In this document: positions 42,016 to 59,399 of the stretch, in pieces | How the letters are laid out: the number at the start of each line of letters is the position of its first letter | Position numbering within the stretch: the stretch's first letter is position 1 | Source of the DNA: a virus | Length of the DNA stretch: 64,000 bases | Virus record (IMG/VR): IMGVR_UViG_3300043774_000656 | Location: 59,305-123,304 of that record | Direction: 5' to 3' (one strand) | Program-made: the position numbers and the translations under genes | The notes under the pieces: model-generated | Databases searched by the model: none | The model's input: only the letters and a program-made list of their open reading frames with translations | What the model was told of the DNA's origin: nothing

Positions 42016-42023
42016 GATAAATA
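42016..42023 (+). promoter_or_regulatory. putative late-promoter motif (G/A)ATA(A/T)ATA
   Basis: GATAAATA directly after a terminator. Same motif at 38925, 47780, 60504, 63536 (+) and 7025, 10028, 11037, 19866, 24455 (-); TATAAATA at 52573. Confidence 0.55.
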
Positions 42024-42053
42024 GACTAAATCATACAACATAGATAAACCAAT

Positions 42054-44156
42054 ATGGACAGTAACAGAAAATTAACACTTGAGGACATAAGAAGACAGAG
42101 TCTTGAAAAATGGACTGAAGCACAGAGAAGAGCCTTAAATGAGGCTACTAAAAATACACCTGTCAATGACAGAACTGCTGCAGGCACAGGTACAGGAAGT
42201 GGTGGTAGCTTTTCAAATAATAATGTACCAGGCATAGCAGCCCAGATTTTCTTTAACGTTTCGGACGTTGTTAATCCATTTGAATATATTCATTACAATA
42301 CTACAACGGGTGCATGGTCTGATGTACTTCTATTTCCAGAAGACATAACAACTTCAGATAACCTTGAGGATTATTTTCTTACAAATGGATATGGTACTAG
42401 CTTCTGGTATATTAAAGATACAACAAGCGAAAACAGAGTAGTTCACGTCAGTACAGATGCAAAAATCCTATGGGACAGTGGTTGGCTTACAGGTGTTACT
42501 GGCTTTGATGTAGATAGTTCAGACGCATTTGGTCTTGTAACACATTTTATAGAATACGGCACTACTAAATTTGAATTGGTTACGATATACAGAGATATAG
42601 TAAATACATTTACATTTGATAATCCGTCAGCTGGTACTTCAAACAATTTCACAAATCGTTTGTATGAAAATAAGGGTTTATATAAACTAACAACTTCAGA
42701 TAACAGTGAAGTTTTATATTCTATAGACGTATTAACGGGTGCTAAAATAGAGTTAGCATCATGTCCAGATGGGTTTACATTGCTATGGGGTAATTATGAC
42801 GGAGCAACGGCTGCTGCAGGCGCTATAGGTTACGGCACAGACGCTGCATTAAACTGTATTTGGTATTACATAACAAATGAGTCTAACGACCAACTTGTCG
42901 AAGCAAAACTTGTTGACTATGATGGAAATGTCCTGGTTGACATAATTGCACAAGCTGCAGATCAGGGAGTTGATTTAACAACTAAGATAATTGACAGTTA
43001 TAGCCAGTTTGGATCCGGTAGAATTACCGGTAATGCCAATAATTGTAGACTTTTACTAGACTTTGATGACAATTACATATTATTAGCCAGCCCAGGCGAA
43101 GGCGTTTATTTCGTTGATGAAAATCCAAAGCCGCCTGGAGGCTTTACTTATTTCCCAGGTGACACAATTACTGGTGATGTGCTTGTCATGACAATTGAGC
43201 CACAGACATATAGCTCTAATGGCCCTCTATACTACAACAGCGGTGCAACAGCCGACGATCCTGGTTTTTGCCTGATAGGCCCAAGTGGCACACCGCAAAT
43301 AGAAACATTTAGTGAGGCAATAACCCTATTTGATGCATATACTGATAGTGACAATGCAGTCACTTTCTGGAAATATGAAGGTAACACAATGTCAGTGGAG
43401 AAATTTTATGCTGCCGATGGTTCAACTGCTAGTTATATTCTTTCGACTGCAGAATATAATATAAATACTGATAGCTTTGCAGTATGGCGTAGTTATACTC
43501 CTACCGGTAGAGGCGAACAGGTTTTTCAAGCAACAAAGTCGGAAAATAACTGGGTTACAACATGGTACATCAATGACACCGATGAACCCGGTACTATACA
43601 TGATGATCCAGGTGCATCCTATAGTACATACACAAACGCATTAGGAGGAAAAGCGAGCATAATATACGCGGACACGACAGAAAGCCCAAATCAGTTATAT
43701 GTAATAGACAGAGATACATCTACTGCTACAGCTTATCCGGTTCAACCGGGCATAGCATATAGCCTCAATGCAAACACCCCCTGGTATCAAAGTTACAGAG
43801 AAACTTGGGCTGCGGTTGTTGATGAAAATTTTTGTGTAATATATGAAGATGGCACTGTTGTACAAGGATCTATTCCTCCAGATCCTACAGGTGCTACCAT
43901 TGGCTTTTTAAATTATTCAGAAAATTATTTGATAATAGCGAATAACGAAAACAAACTTTATTATTATTCACATGACGGTGAAACCATAATTTCTGAAACG
44001 CAAGATAGCGGCAATATATATGGTCCTGTTAATGAATTGACTATCATATCAAATAATGATGGTACAACTTACACTGCGGTAGTAGGATCTTCAGTTGTTC
44101 AGTCACCTGCTCTTTCTGGTAGAAATAGTTATGGATATAATGATCGTGCATGGTAA
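42054..44156 (+). CDS. large acidic beta-rich (propeller-like) protein with conserved N-terminal leader
   Basis: 700 aa, rich in T/S/N/D/Y; leader shared with 38951. Confidence 0.8.
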   Translation: MDSNRKLTLEDIRRQSLEKWTEAQRRALNEATKNTPVNDRTAAGTGTGSGGSFSNNNVPGIAAQIFFNVSDVVNPFEYIHYNTTTGAWSDVLLFPEDITTSDNLEDYFLTNGYGTSFWYIKDTTSENRVVHVSTDAKILWDSGWLTGVTGFDVDSSDAFGLVTHFIEYGTTKFELVTIYRDIVNTFTFDNPSAGTSNNFTNRLYENKGLYKLTTSDNSEVLYSIDVLTGAKIELASCPDGFTLLWGNYDGATAAAGAIGYGTDAALNCIWYYITNESNDQLVEAKLVDYDGNVLVDIIAQAADQGVDLTTKIIDSYSQFGSGRITGNANNCRLLLDFDDNYILLASPGEGVYFVDENPKPPGGFTYFPGDTITGDVLVMTIEPQTYSSNGPLYYNSGATADDPGFCLIGPSGTPQIETFSEAITLFDAYTDSDNAVTFWKYEGNTMSVEKFYAADGSTASYILSTAEYNINTDSFAVWRSYTPTGRGEQVFQATKSENNWVTTWYINDTDEPGTIHDDPGASYSTYTNALGGKASIIYADTTESPNQLYVIDRDTSTATAYPVQPGIAYSLNANTPWYQSYRETWAAVVDENFCVIYEDGTVVQGSIPPDPTGATIGFLNYSENYLIIANNENKLYYYSHDGETIISETQDSGNIYGPVNELTIISNNDGTTYTAVVGSSVVQSPALSGRNSYGYNDRAW

Positions 44157-44171
44157 TAAACTAAATACTAT

Positions 44172-44194
44172 AAAAGGGGCAAAGCCCCTTTTTT
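44172..44194 (+). terminator. intrinsic (bidirectional) terminator
   Basis: AAAAGGGGC-AAA-GCCCCTTTTTT. Confidence 0.85.
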
Positions 44195-44243
44195 AGGCTT
44201 AAACATTTTCTAAACTCTAATTATAAGAATAAAAATATCCACG

Positions 44244-44573
44244 ATGACTGAACACCCAAAAATAGGTAACTGCAAAGTCTTAATTGAAGCAGAAATTGGT
44301 AATAAGTATTTTACACTTGTACAGAGTTACATGACACCCAGATATGATCGTATGCATGGCACTCAACTAATAGGTTTCAAGCATTCTCATTCTAGAACAG
44401 GTACAAAGCTGAAGAGTCAGTACTATGTACTTTGGGGTAACACACCAGATTTTGCCACAATGGGTATCACACAACTACTGACAGATAAGCTAAATGCTGT
44501 AACTGGTAAAACAGTAGTTAAGCGCTTCTTTGAAATTATAAATGCTTCAGAAACTATATCATTTAAGAAATAG
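44244..44573 (+). CDS. hypothetical protein
   Basis: 109-aa ORF. Confidence 0.65.
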   Translation: MTEHPKIGNCKVLIEAEIGNKYFTLVQSYMTPRYDRMHGTQLIGFKHSHSRTGTKLKSQYYVLWGNTPDFATMGITQLLTDKLNAVTGKTVVKRFFEIINASETISFKK

Positions 44574-44639
44574 CGGCAAAAAACTTTAGTGGCTGAAATG
44601 TTTTTTATAATTTTACAAAACTAACTAACTTTATAAATA

Positions 44640-44843
44640 ATGGCAGCAACTAGCAACCACTGGGGTGATATAGCTAAATGGATTGAGCTATCAATTGAAA
44701 CAAGCACCTCTAACAAACACAGAGATGCTAACTACAATCTAATAAATCTACTTTGGGATAGAATGATTGAAAGAGGAGTAAATTTTGAAACAGCACAACT
44801 TCTCAGAAGAAATCTTTTAGCCAAGTTAAACAGTCACATGTAA
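44640..44843 (+). CDS. hypothetical protein
   Basis: MAATSNHWGDIAKWI. Confidence 0.6.
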   Translation: MAATSNHWGDIAKWIELSIETSTSNKHRDANYNLINLLWDRMIERGVNFETAQLLRRNLLAKLNSHM

Positions 44844-44911
44844 TGGAAAAACAGAAGATCTCTTTTATTTTAGCTTAATCTACCGTATATTTACACCATA
44901 ATCAATAACAA

Positions 44912-45112
44912 ATGGGAAACAGTTTTAAGTTTAATTTTTTAGTAAAAGCCGCAACATTTACACTCTTCTGTGCGATTTTTTATCTAGCTTCGGCTTTTGT
45001 CAATCTATCATGGAATCCTCTAGAATTTGGCTTCTGGACTAGAGTAACAGACGCAGCTTGTCTTTTAGGAGCATTATTCTTGATAATCAGAGCAGATGTT
45101 CCACATGTATGA
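44912..45112 (+). CDS. small two-TM membrane protein
   Basis: Behind promoter copy 44886. Confidence 0.65.
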   Translation: MGNSFKFNFLVKAATFTLFCAIFYLASAFVNLSWNPLEFGFWTRVTDAACLLGALFLIIRADVPHV

Positions 45113-45285
45113 AAAAGTTCTATAGATCTAAAAGCGACCAATACATTGGAGGTGTATGCGGTGGTCTAGGTGAGTACACTGGCATCGATCCAATTATTTG
45201 GCGTGCAGTTTTTCTCTTTGCACCAGGCACGTTCTGGGCATATATGTTCATTTTATTTTTTACAAAACAGGGTGAAAATGTCTAA
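45109..45285 (+). CDS. pspC: PspC-domain protein
   Basis: MKKFYRSKSDQYIGGVCGGLGEYTGIDPIIWR matches the PspC signature; start at ATG 45109. Confidence 0.85.
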   Translation: MKKFYRSKSDQYIGGVCGGLGEYTGIDPIIWRAVFLFAPGTFWAYMFILFFTKQGENV

Positions 45286-45589
45286 AATCAAAATTCCATA
45301 TAATCAACTTGGTATAAATGGCAGTTACGGCATTTTTACCTCAATCTACGGTGAAACCTATGTAGTTCCAGCCTGGATCGAAGTTCCTGCAGGTACAAAA
45401 TACGAAGATATCGAGGTTATTGATAGGCCAGTTAAACCAAAGGCAAATCGCCGAGAGTTAAGTATACAAAGTAAAAGCGGCAACACTTACAGGGTTATAA
45501 TTGACAGCCAACTGGGTAATAGCTGTGAATGTGTCGGCTTTATGTATCATAGAAACTGCCGACACTTAAAACAAGTACTTGAAAATTAA
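45278..45589 (+). CDS. SWIM-type zinc-finger protein
   Basis: SKSGNTYRV..SCECVGFMYHRNCRHL. Confidence 0.8.
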   Translation: MSKIKIPYNQLGINGSYGIFTSIYGETYVVPAWIEVPAGTKYEDIEVIDRPVKPKANRRELSIQSKSGNTYRVIIDSQLGNSCECVGFMYHRNCRHLKQVLEN

Positions 45590-45615
45590 GTAAATACTCC
45601 AAATACTTACTAAAC

Positions 45616-46584
45616 ATGAAAAAACTAGGCTTATTTTTTATAGCTCTTTTGAGCTTTTTATTTACTACTGCACAGGACTGTAGCAATGACGTTACAAACC
45701 CCTGGTTCACTAACTTTCAAGAAGATGTAACCATTCTTTGTAGTGATGATCTATCTTCTGTGTTTCCTACTGCTCACGATGATTGTGATACCCTTGTAGA
45801 AATAGCATACTATGATGAAGTTTCACCTGGCTATTGCCCATCAGCTTCTGAAATTGTTAGAATTTACCGAGCCTTTGATGATTCTGGTAATTCTAAAGTT
45901 GAAATGCAATTCATACATATTGTTGATGAACTTGCACCTGTTTTTGCGTATGTACCACCCAGTCTTGTATTGAGCTGTTCTGACACTACTGGCTTTGGTG
46001 TTCCAATTGTTTTTGACAATTGCAGTACAATTTCTTTGTCATTTGAAGACTTTTCAGAAATTGAGAGTAACTGCATGCGCCGTTTAACTAGAATGTGGAC
46101 TGCAGTTGATGAATGCGGCAATTCTTCAATGGCAACACAGATATTACAATTTATTGATCTTATGCCACCTGTCATTACTGGCGATCCTTTTATTGAGTTA
46201 CCAGCAGGATCAAGCATTGATACAGTATTTGTACAGGTATCTGAAAATTGTAATGGTTATAACATTTACTATACAGATATGCCTGCTTCTGGCAATAATA
46301 TCATAAGAACATATACTGCAGTTGATGAATGCGGCAATTCTTCTTCATTTGAACAGATTATAGGCTTTGCTGTTAGCCAAAATGTACAACTTTGCCATAG
46401 ACTTGGTAACGGAAACTATATCACCATAACTGTAAACCAAAATGCAGTACAGGCACACTTAAATCACGGTGATTATCTAGGACCTTGTAATATACAAAAC
46501 TGGCAAAACCAAAATGTGCCATTCCAGATGGGTCTAGAAATGAAAGAGGATGGGACTATCGTTAAACGCGTAAAACAAAAGTAA
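45616..46584 (+). CDS. secreted HYR/Ig-like repeat protein
   Basis: Signal peptide; three repeats ending R(x)(Y/W)(R/T)AxDxxGN; C-terminal LCH...AHLNHGDYLGPC module. Confidence 0.8.
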   Translation: MKKLGLFFIALLSFLFTTAQDCSNDVTNPWFTNFQEDVTILCSDDLSSVFPTAHDDCDTLVEIAYYDEVSPGYCPSASEIVRIYRAFDDSGNSKVEMQFIHIVDELAPVFAYVPPSLVLSCSDTTGFGVPIVFDNCSTISLSFEDFSEIESNCMRRLTRMWTAVDECGNSSMATQILQFIDLMPPVITGDPFIELPAGSSIDTVFVQVSENCNGYNIYYTDMPASGNNIIRTYTAVDECGNSSSFEQIIGFAVSQNVQLCHRLGNGNYITITVNQNAVQAHLNHGDYLGPCNIQNWQNQNVPFQMGLEMKEDGTIVKRVKQK

Positions 46585-47255
46585 TGGAAGTAAAGTACAA
46601 GATCCATGAGGTAAAAGAGAATATTTTTGCAGTCGAAGTAACCGATGATTATAAGCTTGCAATGCTCTTCCTGAGAGTGCAAGAGTTTTATGAATCACCG
46701 AACCCAAGATTCAGAGGAGTCCATTTTAGTATCTGGGATTTCCATGAATGGTATTCAAAAGAAAGAGGCGGATCTTTTACTTATACATCTGACTGGGCTG
46801 GCTTTAATATCCCATATGATGTTCTCAGTGAATGTTATCTCAATATAATTGCAATTGAAACACCATACGACATTGTGATGCAAGAAATTCTTGCTACAAT
46901 TGCTTATAGAAAATCTGAAGGTCCAGCATACATAATTGGAGTACCTGATATCACTGGCCATACATTTATGCATGAAGTTTGCCATGGCATGTATTACGTC
47001 AATGAAGACTATAAACAGGCCGCAGATTCAGTTACTAATGAATTACTTTCGGTTTCGCCACAGTCTTACTACGCTTTCAAGAAAAACCTATTAGGTATGG
47101 GTTATACAGATAGTGTAGTTGATGATGAGATACAAGCATATCTTTCTACAAATTGGGAAAATGGCAACTTTGGATCAGGAGTTGAAAAATCAGTTAAAAG
47201 AAAATTCCATAAACAGTATATAAAACAGTTATCTAAATTTATTGAAATCATATGA
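46584..47255 (+). CDS. HExxH putative metalloprotein
   Basis: QEFYESP, HEVCH, DDEIQAY. Confidence 0.7.
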   Translation: MEVKYKIHEVKENIFAVEVTDDYKLAMLFLRVQEFYESPNPRFRGVHFSIWDFHEWYSKERGGSFTYTSDWAGFNIPYDVLSECYLNIIAIETPYDIVMQEILATIAYRKSEGPAYIIGVPDITGHTFMHEVCHGMYYVNEDYKQAADSVTNELLSVSPQSYYAFKKNLLGMGYTDSVVDDEIQAYLSTNWENGNFGSGVEKSVKRKFHKQYIKQLSKFIEII

Positions 47256-47542
47256 AACAAACATTTTTTATTTTAGGCGCTGCCCTATTGTTTTCTTGCA
47301 ATAATGGCACACAAAGCACAGAATCCGCAAACGCATCAGATTCAACACATGTATGTTGTTCTGATACCCTTACATGTTGTATGGACACAACGGAAAAACA
47401 TTTTCCATGTGTCGTTGAAAAATGCGAAAAGGAAGGTCCTGGCGACTGGGCAATTTACACAGAATGCGGTCTTTGCGTTCATTGTAGTACTGAATGTAAA
47501 GTGGGTGACACTTTAAACATCGAGTCACCAAAGCATGACTAA
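47252..47542 (+). CDS. Cys-rich lipoprotein
   Basis: Lipobox LLFS-C, many Cys. Confidence 0.7.
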   Translation: MKQTFFILGAALLFSCNNGTQSTESANASDSTHVCCSDTLTCCMDTTEKHFPCVVEKCEKEGPGDWAIYTECGLCVHCSTECKVGDTLNIESPKHD

Positions 47543-47756
47543 GACCATTGAGTTTGGAAGCTACATCTATGAGGTAACAGATGACCTGTCTCAAATAAAG
47601 CCAGGTGATCTTTGCCTCTTAGATGGTTGTGCCTTTAGTGCAGGCGACATGAAAATTCTAAATGAATCAATTAGACCTACAGGCCTCTTAAAGGTTTTAA
47701 AGTTTTATGATAAACCTCACCGTAGATTATATTACAGTAGTGAGGTGATTGTGTGA
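47535..47756 (+). CDS. hypothetical protein
   Basis: 73-aa ORF. Confidence 0.55.
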   Translation: MTKTIEFGSYIYEVTDDLSQIKPGDLCLLDGCAFSAGDMKILNESIRPTGLLKVLKFYDKPHRRLYYSSEVIV

Positions 47757-47814
47757 TGTTTTCACGGTCTGTAAAGTTAGATATATAGACCTAACAAAAA
47801 ACAATCAACAATCA

Positions 47815-48372
47815 ATGAAAAAACTAATCCTTCTTTTGCTAGCAATCATCCCAATGGTTGCTCTTTCGCAGTCTACCTTAAACCCAGACACTGTTTGCTA
47901 TCAATCTACAGGTTCTGTTTATCAAGTCGTCAATGAAGCAGGTAATACTTATACCTGGACAGTAGTTGCACCAGGTGTCATCACATCAGGTCAAGGAACC
48001 AATACAATTACCGTTGACTGGTCAGGTGCTGCACCAGGTCTAATAGGTAATGGTGTTTCTGTTTTTCCAACTAACCAATTTGGCTGTGTAGGACCAACTG
48101 TTACCCTTAACGTCTTTATTTACAATGAAACACCTGTTGTCACCCCGATGACTTTCTGTTTCGATGAACCTTGTGCAGATCTTATAGGAACACCATTTGG
48201 TGGTACTTGGTCTGGACCTGGTGTAGTTGGCTCACAGTTTTGTCCAAGTGTTGCCGGCGTTGGTGACCATGTTGTAACTTACACTTATACAGTAGGTGAT
48301 TGTGTATTCACTGCTACTGGCATAATGACTGTTAATCCTATTCCAACTATCTCTCCAATTAGTCACGACTAA
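47815..48372 (+). CDS. secreted PKD/Ig-like protein
   Basis: Start re-assigned to ATG 47815 (MKKLILLLLAII..); YTWTV..GQGTNTITVDW, GGTWSGPGV; ends PTISPISHD. Confidence 0.82.
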   Translation: MKKLILLLLAIIPMVALSQSTLNPDTVCYQSTGSVYQVVNEAGNTYTWTVVAPGVITSGQGTNTITVDWSGAAPGLIGNGVSVFPTNQFGCVGPTVTLNVFIYNETPVVTPMTFCFDEPCADLIGTPFGGTWSGPGVVGSQFCPSVAGVGDHVVTYTYTVGDCVFTATGIMTVNPIPTISPISHD

Positions 48373-48938
48373 TGAAGAGACTGCTTTCTGCAGTTCTGCT
48401 TTTGTTTAGTACATCCCTATTTGCACAACAACAGACAGTGGAACTGTGTGAAGATTACAGGAACACTTTTACATATTATTCGTCTTCAAATGTGGTTGGT
48501 ACCTGGTTCTGGACAGTCGGACCAGATACCTTATCACATTCTAGAACTGTTACTATAACCTGGGACACACCTGGCACATATGAAATAGTAGCAAATTTTG
48601 AAAGCGGTTGTCCTGTTAATCCTAGAACCTATTGGGTACATGTAATTGAATGTGCCGAATCTGCGATTTATTTTCCAAATGCCTTTACGCCAAATGAAGA
48701 TGGCATAAATGATAGATGGGGACCTAGCGGAGTAGGTATAGCCGAGATCAGATGGAAGATATTTGATAGATGGGGACTTGAAATATATGATTCTGGGTCA
48801 ATGACTGACTGGTGGAACGGCTCTTTTAGAAGAGGTGAGTATTACGTCCAAAACGATGTATACATATACAAAGCGGACTGGGTAGGAATAGACGGATCAT
48901 CTGGTACCAAAGTCGGCCATGTAGTACTAATAAGATAA
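48372..48938 (+). CDS. secreted Ig-like protein with T9SS type-B (gliding-motility-associated) C-terminal domain
   Basis: Signal peptide; IYFPNAFTPNEDGINDRW..IFDRWG..WNG..GHVVLIR. Confidence 0.9.
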   Translation: MKRLLSAVLLLFSTSLFAQQQTVELCEDYRNTFTYYSSSNVVGTWFWTVGPDTLSHSRTVTITWDTPGTYEIVANFESGCPVNPRTYWVHVIECAESAIYFPNAFTPNEDGINDRWGPSGVGIAEIRWKIFDRWGLEIYDSGSMTDWWNGSFRRGEYYVQNDVYIYKADWVGIDGSSGTKVGHVVLIR

Positions 48939-48948
48939 CAATAAAACC

Positions 48949-50097
48949 ATGAAACACTTAACCCTAATAGTGTTTTTCATATTAACCAGTCTTTTTTCAT
49001 TCTCACAATGTGATAATGCTGACTTTGAACTTGGTAATTTTACAGGATGGGTTGGTAGAACAGGGACTTGTTGCCCTATAAATTTTACAAACACTGGAAT
49101 AGTCGCAAGTCAGCATACAATAACATCAGGCACCGGAACAGACCCTAGAACCTGTAATCAGGTTCCGGTTGTTTCACCACAAGGTGGAAACTTTTCTGCA
49201 AGACTTGGAAATCCACAAAGAGGTGCAAGAGCAGCAGGTGTTACTTATACATATACTGTAACCGCAAACTCATCTCTTTTTACTTATCAATACGCTGTTG
49301 TATTTGAGGACCCTGGGCATTTTGATGACGAACAACCTAGATTTGAAACTCAGGTAATAGCAGGTGGTCAACCGATACCATGTACTCAATATATGGTTAC
49401 TGCTTCTTCAAATTTACCAGGCTTTCAAAGTTGCCCAGGTATTGATGCACAAGGTAATCCTATCAGCATTTTATACAGAAACTGGTCTACAGTAGGTGTA
49501 GATCTTAGTGCCTACATAGGACAGTCTGTTACTCTTGAATTTAGAGCAGGTGACTGTGATCTAGGAGGGCACTATGGTTATGCATACATTGATGCAATAG
49601 GTTGTCAGCCAATGGAACTTGAGGTCTTGTACTGCGTAGGTGACACTGCTGCAGTGTTGACAGCACCTCCAGGTTTTTCATCATATCAATGGAGTACCGG
49701 CGAGACAACACAGTCAATAACAGTAGATCCATTGGACTATAATCAAATCACATGTACTCTAACCTCCTTTTCAGGTTGTGTTGCAGTACTATCAACTGCA
49801 ATTAACCCTGCAGACCCTCAGGTCAACTTTAGTGCTCAAAATTCATGTTTCTGCGTTGATCCAATTATAGAATTTGCAAATACATCAACATCTGTACATA
49901 GCCCTATTATAAGTTGGCTTTGGGATTTTGGCGATGGAACTACATCAACACTTCAGAATCCATCTCATGTCTATAGTTCACCTGGAACCTATAATGTAAA
50001 ATTGACAGCTGTCACGGAACTTGGATGCTGGGATGAAATTACTTATCCAGTAACCCTGTACCCGTGTCCTACCATTTCTCTTATTAGTCATAACTAA
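48949..50097 (+). CDS. secreted PKD-domain protein
   Basis: Signal peptide; NADFELG; WLWDFGDGTTSTLQNPSHVYSSPGTYNV; ends PTISLISHN. Confidence 0.88.
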   Translation: MKHLTLIVFFILTSLFSFSQCDNADFELGNFTGWVGRTGTCCPINFTNTGIVASQHTITSGTGTDPRTCNQVPVVSPQGGNFSARLGNPQRGARAAGVTYTYTVTANSSLFTYQYAVVFEDPGHFDDEQPRFETQVIAGGQPIPCTQYMVTASSNLPGFQSCPGIDAQGNPISILYRNWSTVGVDLSAYIGQSVTLEFRAGDCDLGGHYGYAYIDAIGCQPMELEVLYCVGDTAAVLTAPPGFSSYQWSTGETTQSITVDPLDYNQITCTLTSFSGCVAVLSTAINPADPQVNFSAQNSCFCVDPIIEFANTSTSVHSPIISWLWDFGDGTTSTLQNPSHVYSSPGTYNVKLTAVTELGCWDEITYPVTLYPCPTISLISHN

Positions 50098-50162
50098 GAA
50101 TACTGAAGAACACTATTATTTTAGAAAAGTTATGTGTATATTCACACTATAACAATAACACT

Positions 50163-50633
50163 ATGGCTAAAAAGAAAATCGAAAAAACAAATCTCACAGA
50201 ATGGGAATGGACACTTGTCTGGTCTAGTATGCGATATTTTATGGGACGTCAAACAATTGCCTCAGCAACTTGGCCAAGCGATTTCATTAAAAATTATGAC
50301 AAGTATCTAACACAGACCCAACGTGATACGATACACAAAGAACTTACTCGCTATTTTGAAGAGTACAAGCAGTTTGGCAACCCCATGATAGACTCAGACC
50401 ATTGGGAGCGCCTGATGTGCTACATGGATAAAAATAACAGGTATCTTGTTGAAAGTAAGCGCACTGCAGATGGTGAAAAGATAGTAGAAATGAATATCTG
50501 CTTTAAGTATAAAGATGCATATTGCCCTATTGAAAAATACGCAGAACAACCCTATCATAGTTGGTATATCAACCCTGAGTATATTAGTTACGTAAGAGAA
50601 ATTATTTCAGATGAACAACTTTACAAAAATTAA
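50163..50633 (+). CDS. hypothetical protein
   Basis: Promoter copy 50137; RYFMGRQT. Confidence 0.7.
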   Translation: MAKKKIEKTNLTEWEWTLVWSSMRYFMGRQTIASATWPSDFIKNYDKYLTQTQRDTIHKELTRYFEEYKQFGNPMIDSDHWERLMCYMDKNNRYLVESKRTADGEKIVEMNICFKYKDAYCPIEKYAEQPYHSWYINPEYISYVREIISDEQLYKN

Positions 50634-51222
50634 AGAGCTGTTAAAATTTGACGATCCGGATAAATTCTATTTTATCCAGATTCTCAAGCGCAGAAAGGAC
50701 AACCCAACAATGGGCAAAGACATGTGCAACATAGATAACTTCTGTGTTTATAGCTTGCAGGATTTTGAAAGATACGAGAGCCGCATTATAGAAATTTGTG
50801 AACGTAACAATGCCAGGGCTTATATTAGGCTGAATAGGCGAAGTGATAAGAAGATAGCACTCCAAATGCTTGCCCGTATGGCCCAGATGATTGCATCTGA
50901 ACAATACAACATACGTAAACTGTATTATAGCATTACAGGTGAGTTCCATTCAGAAGAGGATAAAACTTGGATCATCGACATTGACATGAAGCCATTTGAT
51001 GATTTTGATAGAATAGAAAAACTGATCAATGGGTTGCAGCCAACTGGAGACAAGTTAATAGCCATTATTCCTACTGTAAATGGCTTTCACATGATTACCA
51101 GACCATTTAACCTGTCTGAATTTAGAAAGTACATGGAGTTACAGGGAGACACCACTGATATCCATAAAGATAATCCTACACTTCTGTATTTCCAAGAAAC
51201 AAAAGAGAATGCTTTAATATAA
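50611..51222 (+). CDS. hypothetical phage protein
   Basis: FYFIQILKRRKDN, WIIDID, PTVNGFH, HKDNPT. Confidence 0.75.
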   Translation: MNNFTKIKELLKFDDPDKFYFIQILKRRKDNPTMGKDMCNIDNFCVYSLQDFERYESRIIEICERNNARAYIRLNRRSDKKIALQMLARMAQMIASEQYNIRKLYYSITGEFHSEEDKTWIIDIDMKPFDDFDRIEKLINGLQPTGDKLIAIIPTVNGFHMITRPFNLSEFRKYMELQGDTTDIHKDNPTLLYFQETKENALI

Positions 51223-51230
51223 ACTAAACT

Positions 51231-51566
51231 ATGGCTAAGAAAAAGAATAAAATAGAAAGACCGGAAATTCCAGTTAAGCTAACTGAAACCTTTAAATTGA
51301 CAAGACACGACGGTCTTGTTAGAACCGGCTACACCATACAATGGATTGAATGGAAAAAAGACGGTAGCTTCAAGAAGAGCTTTGATAAACCAGCAGTAGG
51401 TTTAAGTTGCATTCTTGATGGTCACATAATGACGTATACATGGTTGACCACGGCAGTAAAGGAGTTTGGTGAAAATGAGGATGGTAGCATCTGGTTCAAT
51501 ACTGAGAATAGCAAGTACGTTTTAACAAAGGAAACAACATTAACTATAGACAGTCTTTTACCATGA
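51231..51566 (+). CDS. hypothetical protein
   Basis: WLTT..FNTENSKY. Confidence 0.7.
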   Translation: MAKKKNKIERPEIPVKLTETFKLTRHDGLVRTGYTIQWIEWKKDGSFKKSFDKPAVGLSCILDGHIMTYTWLTTAVKEFGENEDGSIWFNTENSKYVLTKETTLTIDSLLP

Positions 51567-51808
51567 AAAAACTAATCTATATCTTAATCGCCATTTTGGC
51601 CTTTTCTTGTACCTCTGGTAAATACAAAGATGAGACAGTCAAATGTGCAGTAACTGAAGTTGAGTATATTCAGCCAGGTAAAATCAGCACATTGCAAATT
51701 GACCCAATGTGGAAGATCAAAACAGAATGTAACATTGAGCTGAAGACAAGAAGAGAAATGAAAGTAGGTGACACAATTGTTATTGTAAAATTAAAACCAT
51801 TCCAATGA
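51563..51808 (+). CDS. small lipoprotein
   Basis: Lipobox LAFS-C. Confidence 0.7.
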   Translation: MKKLIYILIAILAFSCTSGKYKDETVKCAVTEVEYIQPGKISTLQIDPMWKIKTECNIELKTRREMKVGDTIVIVKLKPFQ

Positions 51809-51950
51809 TAGGATATATTTTATTCATAATACTGTTCTGGTCAGCCTTGATCTTATCTGAGCTTTTTGCAAACAGATTTCCGGAAACCAGATACTCAAAA
51901 TTCTGGAGAAAACACATTTTAAGCAAAGATCATAACGAAGACGATGATAC

Positions 51951-52577
51951 ATGGGGGTCTACAATATGAAAAGATTTTTTAGAAAATTCAAAAACATCCA
52001 CTTTCTTATATTAACTGGGCTTATTTGCTTTTACAGTTTTTATGTACCTGTGGCCATATTTACAACGTATACAGATATAGTTCCTATCTGGACTATTCCG
52101 TTTTTTATCATAGGCTCTATGTTTCCTCTATGGTTTAATGAATTTATGTGGAGAACTTCAAAGTTTGGCTCAGATACTTATATTATGTTTCATGAAATTC
52201 ACTTTGAAGATCGTAAATGGAAGAAAAGAACTATGAACCCATTTGTGTTGTTCAAAACATTTGGTAAATGGTGTTTAAAGAGCAGCGAATTTATAATAAT
52301 GAGCATAGTTAACCTGGCTGCATTATTCTATGGTTTTGCGGATATTTTACATGAAGTTGTTTTCCCTTTTACCCCGTTTTATCTCATAAACGCATTATGG
52401 TGGATAAGCCTAATAAAAGTGTTTGCAGGTTTTAGAAATGCAGTTGAAGAAGGAGAGATAAGCTATGGTAGACGTGAACAGGGTGTTAAAACACATTTTT
52501 CTGATGAATGGCATTTGGAAATGAAAAGGATCAGAGAACGTGAAGAGGAATTAAGAAAAATGAAAAGAGACTTATAA
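51951..52577 (+). CDS. multi-pass membrane protein
   Basis: About four hydrophobic segments. Confidence 0.7.
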   Translation: MGVYNMKRFFRKFKNIHFLILTGLICFYSFYVPVAIFTTYTDIVPIWTIPFFIIGSMFPLWFNEFMWRTSKFGSDTYIMFHEIHFEDRKWKKRTMNPFVLFKTFGKWCLKSSEFIIMSIVNLAALFYGFADILHEVVFPFTPFYLINALWWISLIKVFAGFRNAVEEGEISYGRREQGVKTHFSDEWHLEMKRIREREEELRKMKRDL

Positions 52578-52619
52578 ATAAGTTTATAATAAATAAACAA
52601 AAACCAAACATAATTAAAA

Positions 52620-53417
52620 ATGAGAAAATTATTTTTATTTCTATGCCTGTTAGCTTTTAGTGTAGCTAGCATCGCACAAGCAGAAACCGCACAAGTAGAC
52701 ACTATCAAAATGCATGGCCTATTTTATAAGCCTGCCAAAAAAGAGACACCATTCAGTGTTGAATTTGGCTTGGCAACAACTAACCTTTGGAGAGGTGTTG
52801 ATGTAGGAAGACAGGTATGTGTAAAAATCGAAACAGAATATGAGCCAGTCGAATGGTTTACCCTTTCAAACGTGAGTACAGTTGTTTCAAATCAGTATAA
52901 AGTAGGTTATGGTAACATGTACAACACTAAAGCCAGTTTCAACTACTATAATGTAAAAGCAGGTTTACAAGATGTTTATTTCCATAATAATCTTGCCACA
53001 CCAAATGACACTAGTTTTTTCGATTTTAATAAAAATACAACTAATCACTTTGCTGAAGCCTTTTTTGAATATAAAGGAGACGAAACATCTAAAGTCGACT
53101 TTTTGACAACATATTGTTTTTATCAAAACGCTTCATATACTAAAGGATCTTGGTATGTAGAAGCCACTTATCGTGTAGCAGAAAACGCAAAATTATTCGC
53201 TGGCTATGTAGTAGGTCCATCTGGTGTTAGCTTCCAAAACAAAACTGGCTTCACTAATATAGGTATCAATGTCAAGCGTAGTCTACAATTTTCTAAAGAC
53301 TTCAATACCACAGCAAATCTTACAATTGCAGTTAACCCAAGCTACAGTACTATAAAAAATGATAACCCAACGGTTGCAACTAGACCAGTTAACGTAGTAT
53401 TAGCAGTAATATTCTAA
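52620..53417 (+). CDS. outer-membrane beta-barrel protein
   Basis: Signal peptide, alternating amphipathic strands, NLWRG, C-terminal Phe (VVLAVIF). Confidence 0.8.
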   Translation: MRKLFLFLCLLAFSVASIAQAETAQVDTIKMHGLFYKPAKKETPFSVEFGLATTNLWRGVDVGRQVCVKIETEYEPVEWFTLSNVSTVVSNQYKVGYGNMYNTKASFNYYNVKAGLQDVYFHNNLATPNDTSFFDFNKNTTNHFAEAFFEYKGDETSKVDFLTTYCFYQNASYTKGSWYVEATYRVAENAKLFAGYVVGPSGVSFQNKTGFTNIGINVKRSLQFSKDFNTTANLTIAVNPSYSTIKNDNPTVATRPVNVVLAVIF

Positions 53418-53418
53418 T

Positions 53419-55227
53419 ATGAAGAGAGTAATAGCCACATTATACTTAACGCTTATAAGTCTGATCGGTATATCGCAGTGTACTGGCGATATTTCTTATA
53501 CATTAAGCGTTCCACCTGGTCCGAATAACACATATCCGCCTGGATCGACTGTTGAACTTTGTATAACAATGGATGGTTGGAATGGAAATTCACAGGGATC
53601 GAATTGGTTCGAAGGTTTTTTCATAGCCCTAGGTGAAGGCTGGGAAACAGTTACTCCGACTCTATATCCTATCGACGCAGAAGGTGATGGTAGTGGTACA
53701 TGGATATGGGCTACAAGTACAGTTTCAGATAACGGCGCAACTGCTGGTAATGGATTTTATTTTGAAGGACCTACTGGACCTCTCGATGGAAACGGCGGCA
53801 ATGATTGGGGTGATTCATGCCCTAGTACTACATGTGTTTGGTCATGCTGCGTTGAACTAACTGCAGCAGCCGGACCTGCAGGTACAGATCTTCATATCGG
53901 TGTTATTCCCTATTCAGATGGAACAATGGGTAGTTGGGGTACTCAAATGTGTAACGAAACACAAACAGATTTCTTCACTGGATCTATTGGTTGTTTTATA
54001 CCGGGTTGTACAGACCCTCTAGCCTGTAATTTTAGCCAGACTGCAGATTGTGATGACGGTTCATGCACAATTCCCGGATGTACAGATCAAACCGCATGTA
54101 ATTATGATGCTACTGCAGGATGTAATGATTTAAGTTGTACATATCCGGGTTGTATAGACCCGATGGCATGTAACTTTGATTTACTAGCAGGTTGTGATAA
54201 TGGTAGTTGTGATTACTTCAGTATGGGTCCGATTACACCTAGTCTTGTATCATCCGACACCGTATGTACTGGCTTAGAGTTAGTTTATACAGTGACCGGC
54301 AACATAAACTCAATCTATAATTGGAATGTAACAGGAGGAGAGATTATCTTACCAGACCAATCAAAGAATTGCACAGTGCTCTGGGGAAATACACCTGGTA
54401 CATATACAATTACAGCCCAGGAAACAACAGCATCTGGATGCATTGGGCCTATTGAAATCTTTGATGTTGTAGTAGAAGATCCTGTAATAGTTTTTGATAC
54501 AATATACACTGTATGCCCAGGTGAATTAGTTCAATTATCTGCAAGCCCATCAGGAGGTACCTGGTCTGGTGAAAATGTACAGGCTGACATATTTAATTCA
54601 AATATCCCAGGGCTATATAGCCCAGAATATACAGTCACAGTATATGGATGTGAATTAACAGACTTTGCGACAGTTATATTAAGACAACCTTATCCTGCAC
54701 CTGGTCTGTTATATGATTTATTTGAACATGATCTATGCTATTCAGGTTTACAGCACATGTATTCGGTTGACGATAATTCAAATCTAAATTATCTCTGGAG
54801 TGTAGATGATGTATTACAACAAGAAAACAGCAATCAAATACAGGTTATTTGGTCTGATACTACTTTAACACATGAACTTTCAGTATGTGGGATAGATGAA
54901 TTTGGTTGTATCACAGACACGTCCTATATGACAGTGAAGACGACGGCCTGTAACAGGCTTTATATTCCAAACTCATTTACGCCTAATAATGATAAAGTCA
55001 ATGATGTATTTGGCGTATTTGGTTCAGGTGTCTATGAACAAAGGTTAAGAGTGTACAATAAATGGGGTTTTTGTGTGTTTGAATCAAATGGTAACAATGT
55101 GCATTGGACAGGAAGTGATGGTTCAGGCTATTACTGCCCAGATGGTGTTTATTACTGGACTTTAAATTATAGAAATGAACAAGGCTTTAATAAAAATGAA
55201 CAAGGCCATGTAACACTTATAAGATAA
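53419..55227 (+). CDS. secreted Cys-rich/Ig-like protein with T9SS type-B C-terminal domain
   Basis: Signal peptide; three PGC(T/I)DxxACN repeats; PKD-like segments; LYIPNSFTPNNDKVNDVF..VYNKWG..DGVYYW..GHVTLIR. Confidence 0.9.
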   Translation: MKRVIATLYLTLISLIGISQCTGDISYTLSVPPGPNNTYPPGSTVELCITMDGWNGNSQGSNWFEGFFIALGEGWETVTPTLYPIDAEGDGSGTWIWATSTVSDNGATAGNGFYFEGPTGPLDGNGGNDWGDSCPSTTCVWSCCVELTAAAGPAGTDLHIGVIPYSDGTMGSWGTQMCNETQTDFFTGSIGCFIPGCTDPLACNFSQTADCDDGSCTIPGCTDQTACNYDATAGCNDLSCTYPGCIDPMACNFDLLAGCDNGSCDYFSMGPITPSLVSSDTVCTGLELVYTVTGNINSIYNWNVTGGEIILPDQSKNCTVLWGNTPGTYTITAQETTASGCIGPIEIFDVVVEDPVIVFDTIYTVCPGELVQLSASPSGGTWSGENVQADIFNSNIPGLYSPEYTVTVYGCELTDFATVILRQPYPAPGLLYDLFEHDLCYSGLQHMYSVDDNSNLNYLWSVDDVLQQENSNQIQVIWSDTTLTHELSVCGIDEFGCITDTSYMTVKTTACNRLYIPNSFTPNNDKVNDVFGVFGSGVYEQRLRVYNKWGFCVFESNGNNVHWTGSDGSGYYCPDGVYYWTLNYRNEQGFNKNEQGHVTLIR

Positions 55228-55835
55228 TGAGCAACACTGAAAAATTTATACAATTCGTCAAAGGTGAATGTAAAAAGCACAAGGTTAAATTTAAACCTTA
55301 TAAAAGGCGTTACATTAAACTGTCTGATTCTATAAAATGCGGAGGATTCTTTGATGATGGAACCAGTGAACAATTTCCTAAACCTGTTCTGGCTTTTGCC
55401 GCAGGTCATAAAGACTATCTTGAACTTCTAGTCCATGAATATTGCCATATGACCCAATGGCTGGAAAATATCCCACTTTGGAGAAAAGCAAATGACTCAC
55501 TATTAGAAATAGATTTATGGCTAGACGGTGAAGATATTGAAAACATAGAAGAATGTATCAACGCTTCCCGTGATCTGGAACTTGATAATGAGAAAAGATC
55601 TGTTGAAATGATTAAGAGATGGGATTTGCCGATTGATACAACAGAGTATACAAAAAAGGCAAATGCATATGTTCTTTTCTATAATTACATGAAAACGTCT
55701 AGAAAATGGTCTTTACCCAGTAATTCACCATATACTAATAAAGAGGTCCTCTCTAATATGTCAGACAAATTTGACATGGATTATGAAAAACTGGATCTGG
55801 CAATTGAACAGGTTTACAAAGAACAGAATATCTAA
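55227..55835 (+). CDS. HExxH metallopeptidase-like protein
   Basis: LVHEYCH..ELDNE..ANAY. Confidence 0.75.
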   Translation: MSNTEKFIQFVKGECKKHKVKFKPYKRRYIKLSDSIKCGGFFDDGTSEQFPKPVLAFAAGHKDYLELLVHEYCHMTQWLENIPLWRKANDSLLEIDLWLDGEDIENIEECINASRDLELDNEKRSVEMIKRWDLPIDTTEYTKKANAYVLFYNYMKTSRKWSLPSNSPYTNKEVLSNMSDKFDMDYEKLDLAIEQVYKEQNI

Positions 55836-56031
55836 TGAGCTTCATGTTATTGATGATGATAGGAACCGTTTTAACAAGGGTCATACATCATATAAAACAT
55901 AAAACAAGACGTGTAACACTACAGGAGGAGCTTGTTGATTTTGCTGCTACCTATATAATTTATACAATTTTATTTTTGATAACATACTCAGCTTTGTGCT
56001 GGATTTTATAAACAGCTTAAATAAATATAAC

Positions 56032-56322
56032 ATGAAAACATCAACCAGACTTAATTCTTTAGTCAACATGATGACGACTATAGATGGCCTTGTTTTAAAC
56101 TCTAAAAACGATCAAGAACTTGGTCAAAAGGTTAGAGAAGTCTTTAACGGTAAAACAATAGCCCCGAAATGGTCAGTTGATGAGCATGCTGAAGATGGCC
56201 CAATTGCCATTGCTCTCTTTGAAAGCTTACCGCACGCTAAAATGTATCTAGATATGATTAGTGAAGTTGAAAAAGGTGAAAAAAAATTCGGCATAACAGA
56301 CCTTGGAAAAGCACCCTTCTGA
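56032..56322 (+). CDS. hypothetical protein
   Basis: Start ATG 56032; NDQELGQKVR. Confidence 0.65.
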   Translation: MKTSTRLNSLVNMMTTIDGLVLNSKNDQELGQKVREVFNGKTIAPKWSVDEHAEDGPIAIALFESLPHAKMYLDMISEVEKGEKKFGITDLGKAPF

Positions 56323-56554
56323 ATACCAGATTCTAGTCGATAAAAAGACTGGCATGTACATTACCTTTGTTTTTGAGAATAGCAAAGTCGAAATGTGCAA
56401 AACCGCATACCCTGAGCTATGGGGTAAATACGTATTTCCTGAAGACATCAAAAATTATATCAACAGAAAAGACCCAGTTAATGAAATAGACTGGGACAGC
56501 TTTTTTGAAAGCACTGAGTTGACCAAAGTTGATCTGTCTGTCTCTAAAAACTAA
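56303..56554 (+). CDS. hypothetical protein
   Basis: 83-aa ORF, start uncertain. Confidence 0.55.
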   Translation: MEKHPSEYQILVDKKTGMYITFVFENSKVEMCKTAYPELWGKYVFPEDIKNYINRKDPVNEIDWDSFFESTELTKVDLSVSKN

Positions 56555-56618
56555 GTTTTCTGCAAATTTCTTTTGTAACTCACTATCTTTTATTAGTTTT
56601 ACCCATATAAACTAAACT

Positions 56619-56852
56619 ATGATAGTAAAAGACAAACCAAAAACAGGCAAGATTGAAATTGATCTTTCCGGTCCACAGGGTAATGCATTTCACCTGCTGG
56701 CTACCGCAAAAAGCCTAGGCCGCCAACTTAAATTTTCAAAAGAGCAAATCAAGGAGATCGAGTCTGATATGATGTCAGGCGACTACAGTAATCTGATTGA
56801 CGTTTTTGACAACCATTTCGGCGACTACGTAATCCTGTACAAAACATTTTAA
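56619..56852 (+). CDS. small phage protein (GPQGNAF)
   Basis: IDLSGPQGNAF..MMSGDY..FDNHFG. Confidence 0.75.
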   Translation: MIVKDKPKTGKIEIDLSGPQGNAFHLLATAKSLGRQLKFSKEQIKEIESDMMSGDYSNLIDVFDNHFGDYVILYKTF

Positions 56853-56853
56853 T

Positions 56854-57114
56854 ATGGCAAAAGCAATACTTGAATTTGACCTCAACGATCCAGATGACCA
56901 AATGGCATTTAAAAGAGCCAGCAAGTCATTAGATATGGCAATTGTACTATTCGAAATTCAAAATAATTTCAGAAAGAGCTGTATGCGTGGATTAGAGGCC
57001 AAAGAAGAGTTTGGCCTTAAACTGGATGCATTTGATGGAGTGAATTTTGTACTTGAGGAATTATTTAAACTGTTGGATGAGCATAACATCGACACTGACG
57101 AAATCATAAACTAA
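56854..57114 (+). CDS. small phage protein (AILEFDL)
   Basis: 86-aa ORF coupled to mgsA. Confidence 0.7.
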   Translation: MAKAILEFDLNDPDDQMAFKRASKSLDMAIVLFEIQNNFRKSCMRGLEAKEEFGLKLDAFDGVNFVLEELFKLLDEHNIDTDEIIN

Positions 57115-57494
57115 TGGGTAAAATAACATATCTAGCCTGCATAGCACATGACGCTAAAAAACCAGAAATGGTACACTTGGCCATGCAGTACAAAGAAGTA
57201 TTTGAAAACTATAACATAGTTGCTACAGGTACTACAGGAAGACATATAAAACAGACGGGCGTTGAAGTACTGGAAATGAAAAGCGGACCACTTGGCGGTG
57301 ATGCTCAGATTGCCGCAATGGTTACCAATAATGAGATATTGGGTATCATATTTCTGGTAGACCCATTAGACGTACATCCCCATCAGGTTGACGTCAGTAT
57401 GTTGCTTAGAATTTGTAACGTACACAATGTACCCTTGGCCACAAATAAAGCCACTGCTGAAATTTTATTAAGAGAATTAAAAAACGTACTATAA
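57114..57494 (+). CDS. mgsA: methylglyoxal synthase
   Basis: IAHDAKK, ATGTTG, SGPLGGDAQI, DPLDVHPHQVDV, NVPLATN. Confidence 0.95.
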   Translation: MGKITYLACIAHDAKKPEMVHLAMQYKEVFENYNIVATGTTGRHIKQTGVEVLEMKSGPLGGDAQIAAMVTNNEILGIIFLVDPLDVHPHQVDVSMLLRICNVHNVPLATNKATAEILLRELKNVL

Positions 57495-57730
57495 TGTATA
57501 ACTTTTATCTAATAGCATATAAACCGGAGCTCAGTGAACCTGTATTTGAAAGGTTTATGCTGACAGAAGATGATGCTAAAATTGCTGGCTTTGAAAATTT
57601 TGCAGAATATTGTAATGCTGTGTTAAATCAGATTACAGAAGAATGTGAAAACGCACAGGCAAGATATATCCTCTTGAACCAAGAGGAATATATGAAACTA
57701 ATTATAAGAATGGGAGAAAAGGTATTATGA
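57494..57730 (+). CDS. hypothetical protein
   Basis: Coupled on both sides. Confidence 0.6.
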   Translation: MYNFYLIAYKPELSEPVFERFMLTEDDAKIAGFENFAEYCNAVLNQITEECENAQARYILLNQEEYMKLIIRMGEKVL

Positions 57731-58143
57731 GAATATACTTAGACGACTTAAGAACGCCAAAAGAAAATGACTGGACTGTTGTACGAAACTACGAAGAGTT
57801 CGTCAACAAAATTACAGAAATTGGCTTGGATAAAATAGAATTGATCTCTTTAGACCATGATCTTGGCGATTCAGCAATGGCTGAATGGTGTAATAATGTT
57901 TATCAAAACTATACCTTAAACTACGATAACATTACTGAGAAGACAGGTATGGACTGTACTAAATGGCTCGTTGAACAATGGTTAAATGGAGCACCGGTCT
58001 GTAAGGTGATGGTACATTCTGCGAATGCCGTAGGATCAGCAAACATGATGGGCTATATCAATAACTATAGACATATCCATCGTTTACCTCAAGATTGCGA
58101 AAGATGGGTTGTACCCCATACTATCGAAACTATAATTGAGTAA
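57727..58143 (+). CDS. cyclic-phosphate-processing receiver-domain protein
   Basis: IYLDDLR, ISLDHDLG, TGMD, VHSANAVG. Confidence 0.85.
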   Translation: MRIYLDDLRTPKENDWTVVRNYEEFVNKITEIGLDKIELISLDHDLGDSAMAEWCNNVYQNYTLNYDNITEKTGMDCTKWLVEQWLNGAPVCKVMVHSANAVGSANMMGYINNYRHIHRLPQDCERWVVPHTIETIIE

Positions 58144-58190
58144 ACTGCAAAGCCCTTTGAAACATGGGCTTTGCTTTTTATATTTACACT

Positions 58191-59397: not shown

Positions 59398-59399
59398 TT

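Follow-up and report, generated by a model that had tools for sequence, protein, structure and literature searches.

The type-B family of C-terminal sorting domains (CTDs), which mark cargo for secretion by the type IX system (T9SS), is restricted to the phylum Bacteroidota. T9SS substrates in general combine a Sec signal peptide with a CTD. Those with type-A CTDs go via PorV; those with type-B CTDs depend on cognate PorP/SprF shuttles, which are usually encoded directly downstream (PMC12618676). According to the same source, a shuttle gene adjoins nine of the 12 type-B substrates of Flavobacterium johnsoniae, three orphan substrates have the orphan shuttle Fjoh_1677 in common, and recognition by the shuttle involves five conserved motifs that are necessary but not sufficient. 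Binding of type-B CTD proteins to PorP-like proteins is also described in PMC9143113. Among phages, 'Cryophage' carries three type-A CTD genes, termed 'a unique occurrence' in 2020, and these cargo genes are the variable ones among its near-identical variants (Bellas et al., PMC7468147); crAss-like gut contigs carry open reading frames (ORFs) with T9SS sorting domains (de Jonge et al. 2019, PMC6949934). Here we analyze a 64,000-nucleotide window, bases 59305–123304 of the 123,304-bp IMG/VR virus record IMGVR_UViG_3300043774_000656 (CheckV completeness ~45%). Within this window lies a block of genes for secreted proteins, two of which, with 188 and 602 amino acids, end in predicted type-B CTDs. 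All positions below are those of the window.

The first-pass annotation, made from the sequence alone, had read complete sorting domains of this type in two ORFs, starting at 48372 and 53419, and profile searches bear out that reading. CHU_C (PF13585, cut-off 27) scores 48.5 bits in the small protein, which also has a weak PKD match, and 60.1 bits in the large one; NCBIfam TIGR04131 (cut-off 35) scores 43.9 and 38.0 bits, respectively. Positions 2–84 of the 85 in the TIGR04131 model align to residues 100–187 of the 188-residue protein, and positions 3–85 to residues 516–602 of the 602-residue protein. A six-frame scan of the whole record finds exactly two TIGR04131 domains, at 44.8 and 43.2 bits. 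As judged by these curated models, genuine type-B T9SS sorting domains are present at both C-termini.

Four of five related virus records also contain TIGR04131 genes, two in each (about 190 and 604–610 amino acids). These five were taken from the records that underlie 17 viral loci with relatives of a beta-barrel gene in the block; the sole record with no match is a 48%-complete fragment. The carriers include genomes of 322,372 bp and 321,403 bp (terminal repeats), both rated 100% complete. Orthologs of the small CTD protein, with 190 amino acids and 40–42% identity, are found in these two complete relatives, designated G001 and G002 (the 321-kb one), and in G004 and G005. Separately, G002 holds two ORFs with type-A CTDs above the TIGR04183 cut-off (L093, L095); no such ORF was found in the record itself, G001 or G004.

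CHU_C, PKD, and HYR domains are typical of Bacteroidota chromosomes, and the block might conceivably have been captured recently from the host, or be an assembly chimera, and play no part in the phage. The surroundings make this hardly credible. PHROG matches were obtained for 25 of the 66 window ORFs scanned. They flank the block on both sides; ATP-dependent DNA ligase, DNA helicase, PhoH, thymidylate synthase, polynucleotide kinase, and RNA ligase are among them, as are several families of tail fibres and a virion structural protein (E 3e-129). Three ORFs inside the block (50163, 50611, and 51231) belong to PHROG families of unknown function, and GC content is 0.36–0.41 in the block versus 0.35–0.45 in the rest of the window; the interspersed phage genes of similar composition noted at first pass are indeed there. 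Near-identical DNA occurs in 20 public runs from 15 studies (lake, freshwater, and estuary metagenomes), one of which may be the window's own source. Contigs from four runs of other metagenomes, compared against window positions 42000–60000, span the points at which the secreted-protein genes meet their neighbours: 44418–46963, 46938–50158, 50136–52196, 52408–53146, and 53129–54152 in run X3, and 47328–49886 and 53064–53894 in run X6 (contigs from X3 and a further run, X4, are equal in size, and so these two are possibly not independent). Finally, the genes are intact at 40–50% identity in the complete phages, and a scan with two N-terminal peptide patterns confirmed no relative of the large protein in bacterial species representatives. 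Their presence in complete phages of 321–322 kb and in many viral contigs therefore identifies them as long-kept phage genes, and not as a recent host fragment or the chimera for which the first-pass annotation had proposed a check.

Runs X3 and X4 also contain ~1.1 kb of extra DNA between the 48949 and 50163 genes (window ~50150), a strain indel. Among GenBank phages, megablast with positions 45000–56000 returned no match. The phage had been called lytic at first pass. Tyrosine integrase is absent from the record and from both complete relatives (the search was positive in 14 of 14 control genomes), which fits a virulent lifestyle but does not prove it.

The same records encode no recognizable shuttle. 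At E <= 1, a six-frame search with PF11751, the PorP/SprF family, found no match in the record or in any of the five related records; the method works, since the same search found nine copies in a Raineya genome. The ORF of the 52620 barrel has its stop at 53417, and the start of the large CTD gene is at 53419, confirming the 1-bp spacing that was noted at first pass, and the same single nucleotide separates the two genes in strain variants. Barrel and CTD genes also co-occur in G001, G002, G004, and G005. These observations would fit a barrel that acts as a phage-encoded functional analogue of PorP/SprF, receiving and anchoring the large CTD protein, and the first-pass annotation had suggested such a partner, although it did not recognize the barrel as PorP by eye.

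Comparison of the barrel with known families points elsewhere. The protein has no Pfam or NCBIfam match at E <= 0.01 and no PHROG match. An alignment of phage barrels, compared by hhalign with five Raineya PorP/SprF proteins, reached 9% probability, through the signal peptide only. A profile of 12 phage barrels, on the other hand, retrieved 163 cluster representatives at E <= 1e-3, 96 of which were scanned: ten pass the threshold of PF09694 (Gcw_chp), 13 more match it below cut-off, and a single one has a local 17-bit PorP_SprF match, below the cut-off of 22.3. The NCBIfam counterpart of PF09694 is TIGR02001, 'TorF family putative porin'. Against the ten PF09694-positive proteins, hhalign gave the phage barrels 99.7% probability (E 3.5e-26, 222 columns), a partly circular comparison in that the ten were drawn from matches to the phage profile. 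The phage barrel itself is below the PF09694 and TIGR02001 thresholds (no match at E <= 0.01). By profile comparison, then, the barrel belongs to a TorF/Gcw_chp-like family of putative porins, within which it is divergent, and not to PorP/SprF.

Structure prediction is consistent with this assignment. The AlphaFold2 model of the barrel has 12 strands (mean pLDDT 71), and the chain ends in F. The structures most like it are 12-strand channels (KdgM, Z 14.8; COG4313 channel, 14.4; FapF, 14.3; NanC, 13.8; Tsx, 12.7); PorV of the T9SS translocon reaches Z 11.1. Foldseek retrieves generic barrels only, with TM <= 0.48. Prediction of a complex between the barrel (residues 31–265) and the CTD of the large protein (residues 505–602) scored 0.00 in two runs with no controls, and counts neither for nor against an interaction.

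The genomic setting of bacterial relatives likewise speaks against a shuttle. A mixed profile of phage and intermediate sequences detects the family in 130 of 301 sampled Bacteroidota genomes, mostly as a single copy, and none of the 12 best bacterial loci has a CHU_C neighbour. An ammonium transporter (Amt) gene adjoins eight of the 12 (L048, L050–L052, L054, L056–L058), one of them with P-II as well, which suggests that these bacterial relatives are Amt-associated outer-membrane channels. With the phage-only profile, the nearest bacterial protein comes from a Raineya sp. metagenome-assembled genome (107 bits) and is not Amt-linked; the Amt-linked proteins score only 14–36 bits, so the ammonium link belongs to a more distant subfamily. 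We read the barrel as a copy, carried by the phage, of a porin-type outer-membrane protein of the host, with a putative function of that kind.

Gene order also separates the barrel from the CTD genes. In G001, the barrel gene lies 58–70 kb from both CTD genes; in G002, it lies about 1 kb from the small one and about 15 kb from the large one. Twelve close viral loci contain full-length relatives of the large CTD gene (several from the same or near-identical genomes), and the barrel is directly adjacent to that gene in none of them. It lies 1.4 kb upstream in one (L004/L068), which might be cited in favour of a shuttle. In eight, including both complete genomes, the position directly upstream is taken by a homolog (49–51% identity, and 49–50% in the two complete genomes) of the 51951 membrane protein, for example at L028:3811-4335 and L029:3924-4442; neither gene was seen in the remaining three. 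This membrane protein, which matches no Pfam family and only unnamed clusters in an Atlas look-up, is thus the usual upstream neighbour, and in the window the barrel gene sits between a conserved pair. Moreover, bacterial shuttle genes lie downstream of their substrates (PMC12618676), whereas the barrel gene is upstream. Raineya follows the bacterial arrangement: ORFs with type-B-like ends (...L[TL][IV][KR]) occur just upstream of PorP/SprF genes (L038, L042). Together, the profile null, the porin-family homology, the upstream position, and the non-conserved adjacency rule out the barrel as a PorP/SprF protein; that it nonetheless serves as a functional analogue for the large CTD protein is very improbable.

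The remaining genes of the block are likewise conserved in content and not in order. Genes for the HYR, PKD_6, PKD_4, small CTD, membrane, and barrel proteins are all present in both complete genomes. There, the PKD_4, PKD_6, and small CTD genes stay together as a trio; the large CTD gene is 12–15 kb from this trio, and the HYR gene is tens of kilobases away. The HYR protein has homologs with 48% identity at distant positions in four of the five related records, both complete genomes included. The PKD_6 protein is 53–54% identical in the two complete genomes, and full-length PKD_4 homologs (44–46% identity) adjoin the PKD_6/small CTD pair in both. The gene set is thus conserved across the clade, and only in this phage is it a tight cassette. 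The cassette described at first pass stands for this phage; relatives keep the same genes scattered.

What do the CTDs carry? Behind its signal peptide, the 602-residue protein has a conserved beta domain at the N-terminus, followed by three Cys-rich CxDxxACN repeats, then Ig-like domains, and finally the CTD. Its AlphaFold2 model (pLDDT 77.6) shows three Ig-like domains, with the Cys-rich segment poorly modelled. In structure, this model is most like the Ig arrays of GhpA, known as the 'grappling hook' protein of Aureispira, and Ig arrays dominate the Foldseek matches for the model as a whole. At the sequence level, the profile of the large protein matches GhpA residues 5793–5890 of 5898 (E 1e-4). 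The passengers of the two CTD proteins, with their N-terminal beta domain, Cys-rich repeats, and Ig/PKD-like arrays, look like adhesins as far as these models go.

Relatives of the large protein are numerous: 1036 in the database at E <= 1e-5. The best 120 of these have 43–76% identity, mostly over the full length, on contigs of up to 310 kb, and 119 of those 120 contain PF13585. In IMG/VR, 34 viral loci have relatives. Conservation along the protein is uneven. Over 35 aligned homologs, identity to the window protein is 63–66% in the N-terminal domain and Cys repeats, lowest at 35% in the middle Ig domains, and intermediate at 50% in the CTD. All 35 keep the signal peptide, a basic-hydrophobic segment ending in ...SQC or similar, even though identity within it averages only 34%. 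Among GenBank phages, tblastn with the large protein gave four partial matches. These include uncultured phages of 634 and 642 kb, with 36.5% identity in the N-terminal domain and 34% in the CTD region, so related modules exist in even larger phages.

The large CTD gene also varies among near-identical phages. Contigs of run X3 differ from the window at 23 of 2546 positions (44418–46963), 36 of 3221 (46938–50158), 52 of 2061 (50136–52196), and 68 of 2266 (56617–58882). At the start of the large CTD gene (53129–54152), 52 of 1024 positions differ; from 54152 to 54872, similarity is mostly under the 90% threshold; and from 54872 to 55636, a segment that covers the CTD and runs into the following gene, there are differences at 104 of 765 positions, with several small indels within the CTD. 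Divergence thus ranges from 5% to more than 10%, with indels, in this gene versus about 1–3% in flanking genes, which makes it a strain-level hotspot. Such hypervariability is in keeping with diversifying pressure on a surface-exposed protein, or with frequent recombination.

Virions commonly bear Ig-like domains, and the Ig and PKD proteins could in principle be virion decorations or tail-associated proteins (similar to Hoc, or to BACON proteins of crAss-like phages), with CHU_C reused as a binding module. Tail-fibre genes do occur elsewhere in the window, and crAss-like contigs have T9SS sorting-domain ORFs near head genes (PMC6949934). However, the signal peptide is universal among the 35 homologs of the large protein, and 112 of 120 PKD_6 homologs (52–99% identical) have a basic residue among their first six. 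Sec export is incompatible with virion assembly in the cytoplasm, and the genes of the block sit among non-structural genes. A place on the virion is accordingly a highly improbable fate for these proteins.

Instead, the block probably supplies envelope proteins for the infected cell, with the two type-B cargo proteins displayed by means of the host T9SS and a host shuttle; we favour this account with moderate confidence. The carriers would belong to a clade of freshwater jumbo phages of roughly 320 kb, whose hosts must be Bacteroidota with a T9SS. We infer T9SS-dependent export, host-shuttle use, surface location, and biological role along the following lines. Sec export would bring the 188- and 602-residue proteins into the periplasm; the host SprA/Sov translocon would move them across the outer membrane; and a host PorP/SprF-type shuttle would hand over or anchor them, as with the orphan substrates of F. 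johnsoniae. Export would depend on a host shuttle because no phage record examined encodes PorP/SprF. Given adhesin-like passengers, the infected cell would then display phage-made surface proteins. The likeliest effects would be changed adhesion or gliding, or an occupied type-B display pathway, and either would change how accessible T9SS-dependent surface receptors are, thereby excluding superinfecting phages. The barrel would be a separate, porin-like outer-membrane protein and not a shuttle, and the HYR and PKD proteins, which lack a CTD, would be periplasmic or accessory.

In Flavobacterium psychrophilum, phage resistance is reported to lie mostly in gliding-motility genes (PMC9804748). 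This links the susceptibility of flavobacteria to phages with surface and gliding proteins that depend on the T9SS, and makes a route to exclusion or altered adhesion conceivable. The same report can be read in favour of a different role, in which the CTD proteins are decoys that saturate the host type-B pathway (shuttles or translocon), shut down display of SprB-like adhesins, stop gliding, and remove phage receptors. The small protein is near-minimal cargo, its 188 residues comprising just one Ig-like domain between signal peptide and CTD; the phage encodes no shuttle; and shuttles are described as specific and limiting for type-B substrates (PMC12618676). The contrast in conservation between the N-terminal domain and Cys repeats (63–66%) and the middle Ig domains (35%) of the large protein, though, points to a function of the passenger itself. 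The decoy role is distinctly unlikely.

Several points weigh against display through host shuttles. Specific shuttles are reported to be required by type-B substrates, and that a phage CTD can use one of the host is an assumption. Exclusion or altered adhesion is one among several possible roles, proposed by analogy. The model assigns no role to the inner-membrane-type protein encoded in the conserved position upstream of the large CTD gene, nor does the T9SS account for the three secreted proteins, out of five, that have no CTD. No RNA run is among the public runs with near-identical DNA. Finally, the pattern scan of bacterial species representatives gave 21 matches and no confirmed one using two N-terminal peptide patterns only, a faint hint that the family of the large protein may be absent from bacterial species genomes.

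The CTD-less PKD proteins offer a further clue. The small CTD gene is directly preceded by the PKD_6 gene in every genome examined (the window, G001, and G002); the PKD_6 stop overlaps the small CTD start in the window, and a 2-nt gap separates them in the relatives. The PKD_6 protein ends in ...P-I-S-H-D and the PKD_4 protein in ...I-S-H-N, both tails conforming to ...P-x-I-S-x-I-S-H-[D/N]. Among the 120 PKD_6 homologs, P occupies position −9 in 116, P position −5 in 114, I position −4 in 119, S or Q position −3 in 100, H position −2 in 116, and N or D position −1 in 119. The consensus, P-x-P-x-[IL]-S-P-I-[S/Q]-H-[N/D]-COOH, is much more conserved than the remaining protein (window, L028, L030, L020–L023). 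This tail may be an undescribed C-terminal recognition tag, perhaps one that binds the small CTD protein.

Combining these elements yields a bolder scheme, a conserved set for takeover of the cell surface. Orphan type-B cargo would be fitted to SprF-like shuttles of the host; fast-evolving phage proteins would displace gliding adhesins, resulting in the exclusion of superinfecting phages or in new attachment properties; the PKD proteins without a CTD would be piggy-backed onto the small CTD protein via P-I-[S/Q]-H-[N/D]-COOH; and the phage porin would independently change outer-membrane permeability during a long infection. As a whole, this scheme is speculative and rather unlikely.

The features of the block are collected in Table 1. 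The five secreted proteins seen at first pass, with Ig/PKD/HYR or Cys-rich composition, are all there, and the HYR_4C, PKD_6, PKD_4, and CHU_C matches agree with their description; each starts with a basic-hydrophobic, signal-peptide-like segment. The two lipoproteins mentioned with them are also present, as lipobox ORFs.

Table 1. Features of the secreted-protein block, in window coordinates.
Feature	Position	Strand	Basis
Cys-rich HYR-domain secreted protein, 322 aa, signal peptide, no CTD	45616..46584	+	HYR_4C E 5e-10, 39.8 bits (cut-off 27)
Small Cys-rich lipoprotein-like ORF, 96 aa, lipobox ...LFSC	47252..47542	+	Sequence, signal-peptide rule
Secreted PKD_6 protein, 185 aa	47815..48372	+	PKD_6 E 8e-10, 39.3 bits (cut-off 25)
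Small predicted type-B T9SS cargo, 188 aa	48372..48938	+	Signal peptide, one Ig/PKD-like domain, type-B CTD
Secreted protein, 382 aa, beta-rich N-terminal domain and PKD (PKD_4 protein)	48949..50097	+	PKD_4 E 7e-17, 61.6 bits (cut-off 27)
Small lipoprotein-like ORF, 81 aa, ...AFSC	51563..51808	+	Sequence, signal-peptide rule
Multi-pass membrane protein, 208 aa, inner-membrane-type	51951..52577	+	Conserved upstream of large CTD gene
Predicted outer-membrane 12-strand beta-barrel, 265 aa, signal peptide, C-terminal F	52620..53417	+	AlphaFold2, profile comparison
Large predicted type-B T9SS cargo, 602 aa	53419..55227	+	Signal peptide, CHU_C, TIGR04131

Signal peptides were called by sequence and with a simple rule script, not SignalP; the script overlooked the 47815 ORF and flagged one or two non-secretory ORFs elsewhere. 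Signal-peptide-like ORFs are clustered: seven of the 12 flagged among the record's 157 ORFs fall in a 14-ORF stretch (hypergeometric P = 5e-6). Outside the block, two more ORFs with signal peptides occupy 38244–38915 and 22540–22878 (minus strand), one with a borderline SPOR domain (20.9 bits, cut-off 21) and the other with a weak DUF6705 match. The window's sole tRNA is a 90-nt tRNA-Leu (GAG) at 37046–37135.

For the smaller features of the block, homology is sparse. The membrane protein, both lipoproteins, and ORF 46584 have no Pfam match even at E <= 1, and the 47252 lipoprotein-like ORF matches no family. A 56%-identical homolog of the 51563 ORF is encoded near a relative of the large CTD gene in viral locus L074. 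The PKD domain of the 48949 protein matches PKD domains of the collagenase ColH, and its N-terminal domain finds unnamed clusters only in an Atlas look-up. Two ORFs, 46584–47255 and 55227–55835, overlap the stops of the HYR and large CTD genes, respectively, and each contains an HExxH motif (HEVCH and HEYCH). No paralogy between the two was detected, nor any significant family match; for the latter ORF there is only a 12-bit DUF6782 hint (Pfam, E <= 1). In viral loci L074 and L083, homologs of ORF 55227–55835 lie downstream of genes related to the large CTD gene.

These results have implications beyond one phage. Cargo with no phage-encoded shuttle provides a natural test of shuttle specificity, and of its exploitation or jamming by viruses. 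Phage-made T9SS cargo could bring about superinfection exclusion, or altered adhesion of infected cells on particles. Conservation among 320-kb phages, and occurrence across 15 studies, suggest ecological relevance and offer many natural variants. The idea of a phage-borne shuttle is corrected, and a phage protein of a porin family and a near-invariant tail motif are flagged as side observations.

How, then, does this locus compare with described systems? Phage T9SS cargo with type-A tags has already been published, and a literature search (supplements excluded) found no report of type-B CTDs in phages; type-B cargo across a jumbo-phage clade with no phage shuttle is new, as are the strain-level hypervariability of the large gene and the near-invariant tail of the PKD proteins. 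As described in the sources cited above, Cryophage and the crAss-like phages resemble the present case in being Bacteroidota phages with T9SS-sorted genes, and the Cryophage cargo is variable in the manner of the large CTD gene. Their CTDs, however, are of type A, associated with the PorV shuttle and PorU sortase route, whereas those described here are of type B, associated with specific PorP/SprF shuttles. Moreover, Cryophage cargo consists of enzymes and a PA14 protein; here, the cargo is adhesin-like and is conserved across a jumbo-phage clade.

The barrel, for its part, shares with PorP/SprF proteins (PF11751) an outer-membrane barrel, a signal peptide, and, in this one phage, an adjoining type-B CTD gene. 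It differs from them in its lack of profile similarity, its KdgM/NanC-like 12-strand model, its position on the upstream side, and an adjacency that is not kept. With the TorF/Gcw_chp porins (PF09694, TIGR02001), the likeness extends to length (about 240–265 amino acids), signal peptide, 12-strand model, and the motifs WRG and H..E; the phage barrel nonetheless falls below the thresholds of that family, and linkage to ammonium transporters is found only in the more distant bacterial subfamily.

The CTD proteins themselves come closest to the bacterial type-B substrates, including SprB, Fjoh_3952, the F. johnsoniae orphans, PG1035 of Porphyromonas gingivalis, and GhpA. Like these, they combine a signal peptide and a TIGR04131/PF13585 domain with Ig-like arrays. 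Unlike these, they are phage-encoded and small (188 and 602 amino acids), the N-terminal domain of the large protein belongs to no family, and no PorP/SprF gene accompanies them, adjacent or elsewhere, in any phage genome analyzed. They are comparable, at most, to the 'orphan' substrates.

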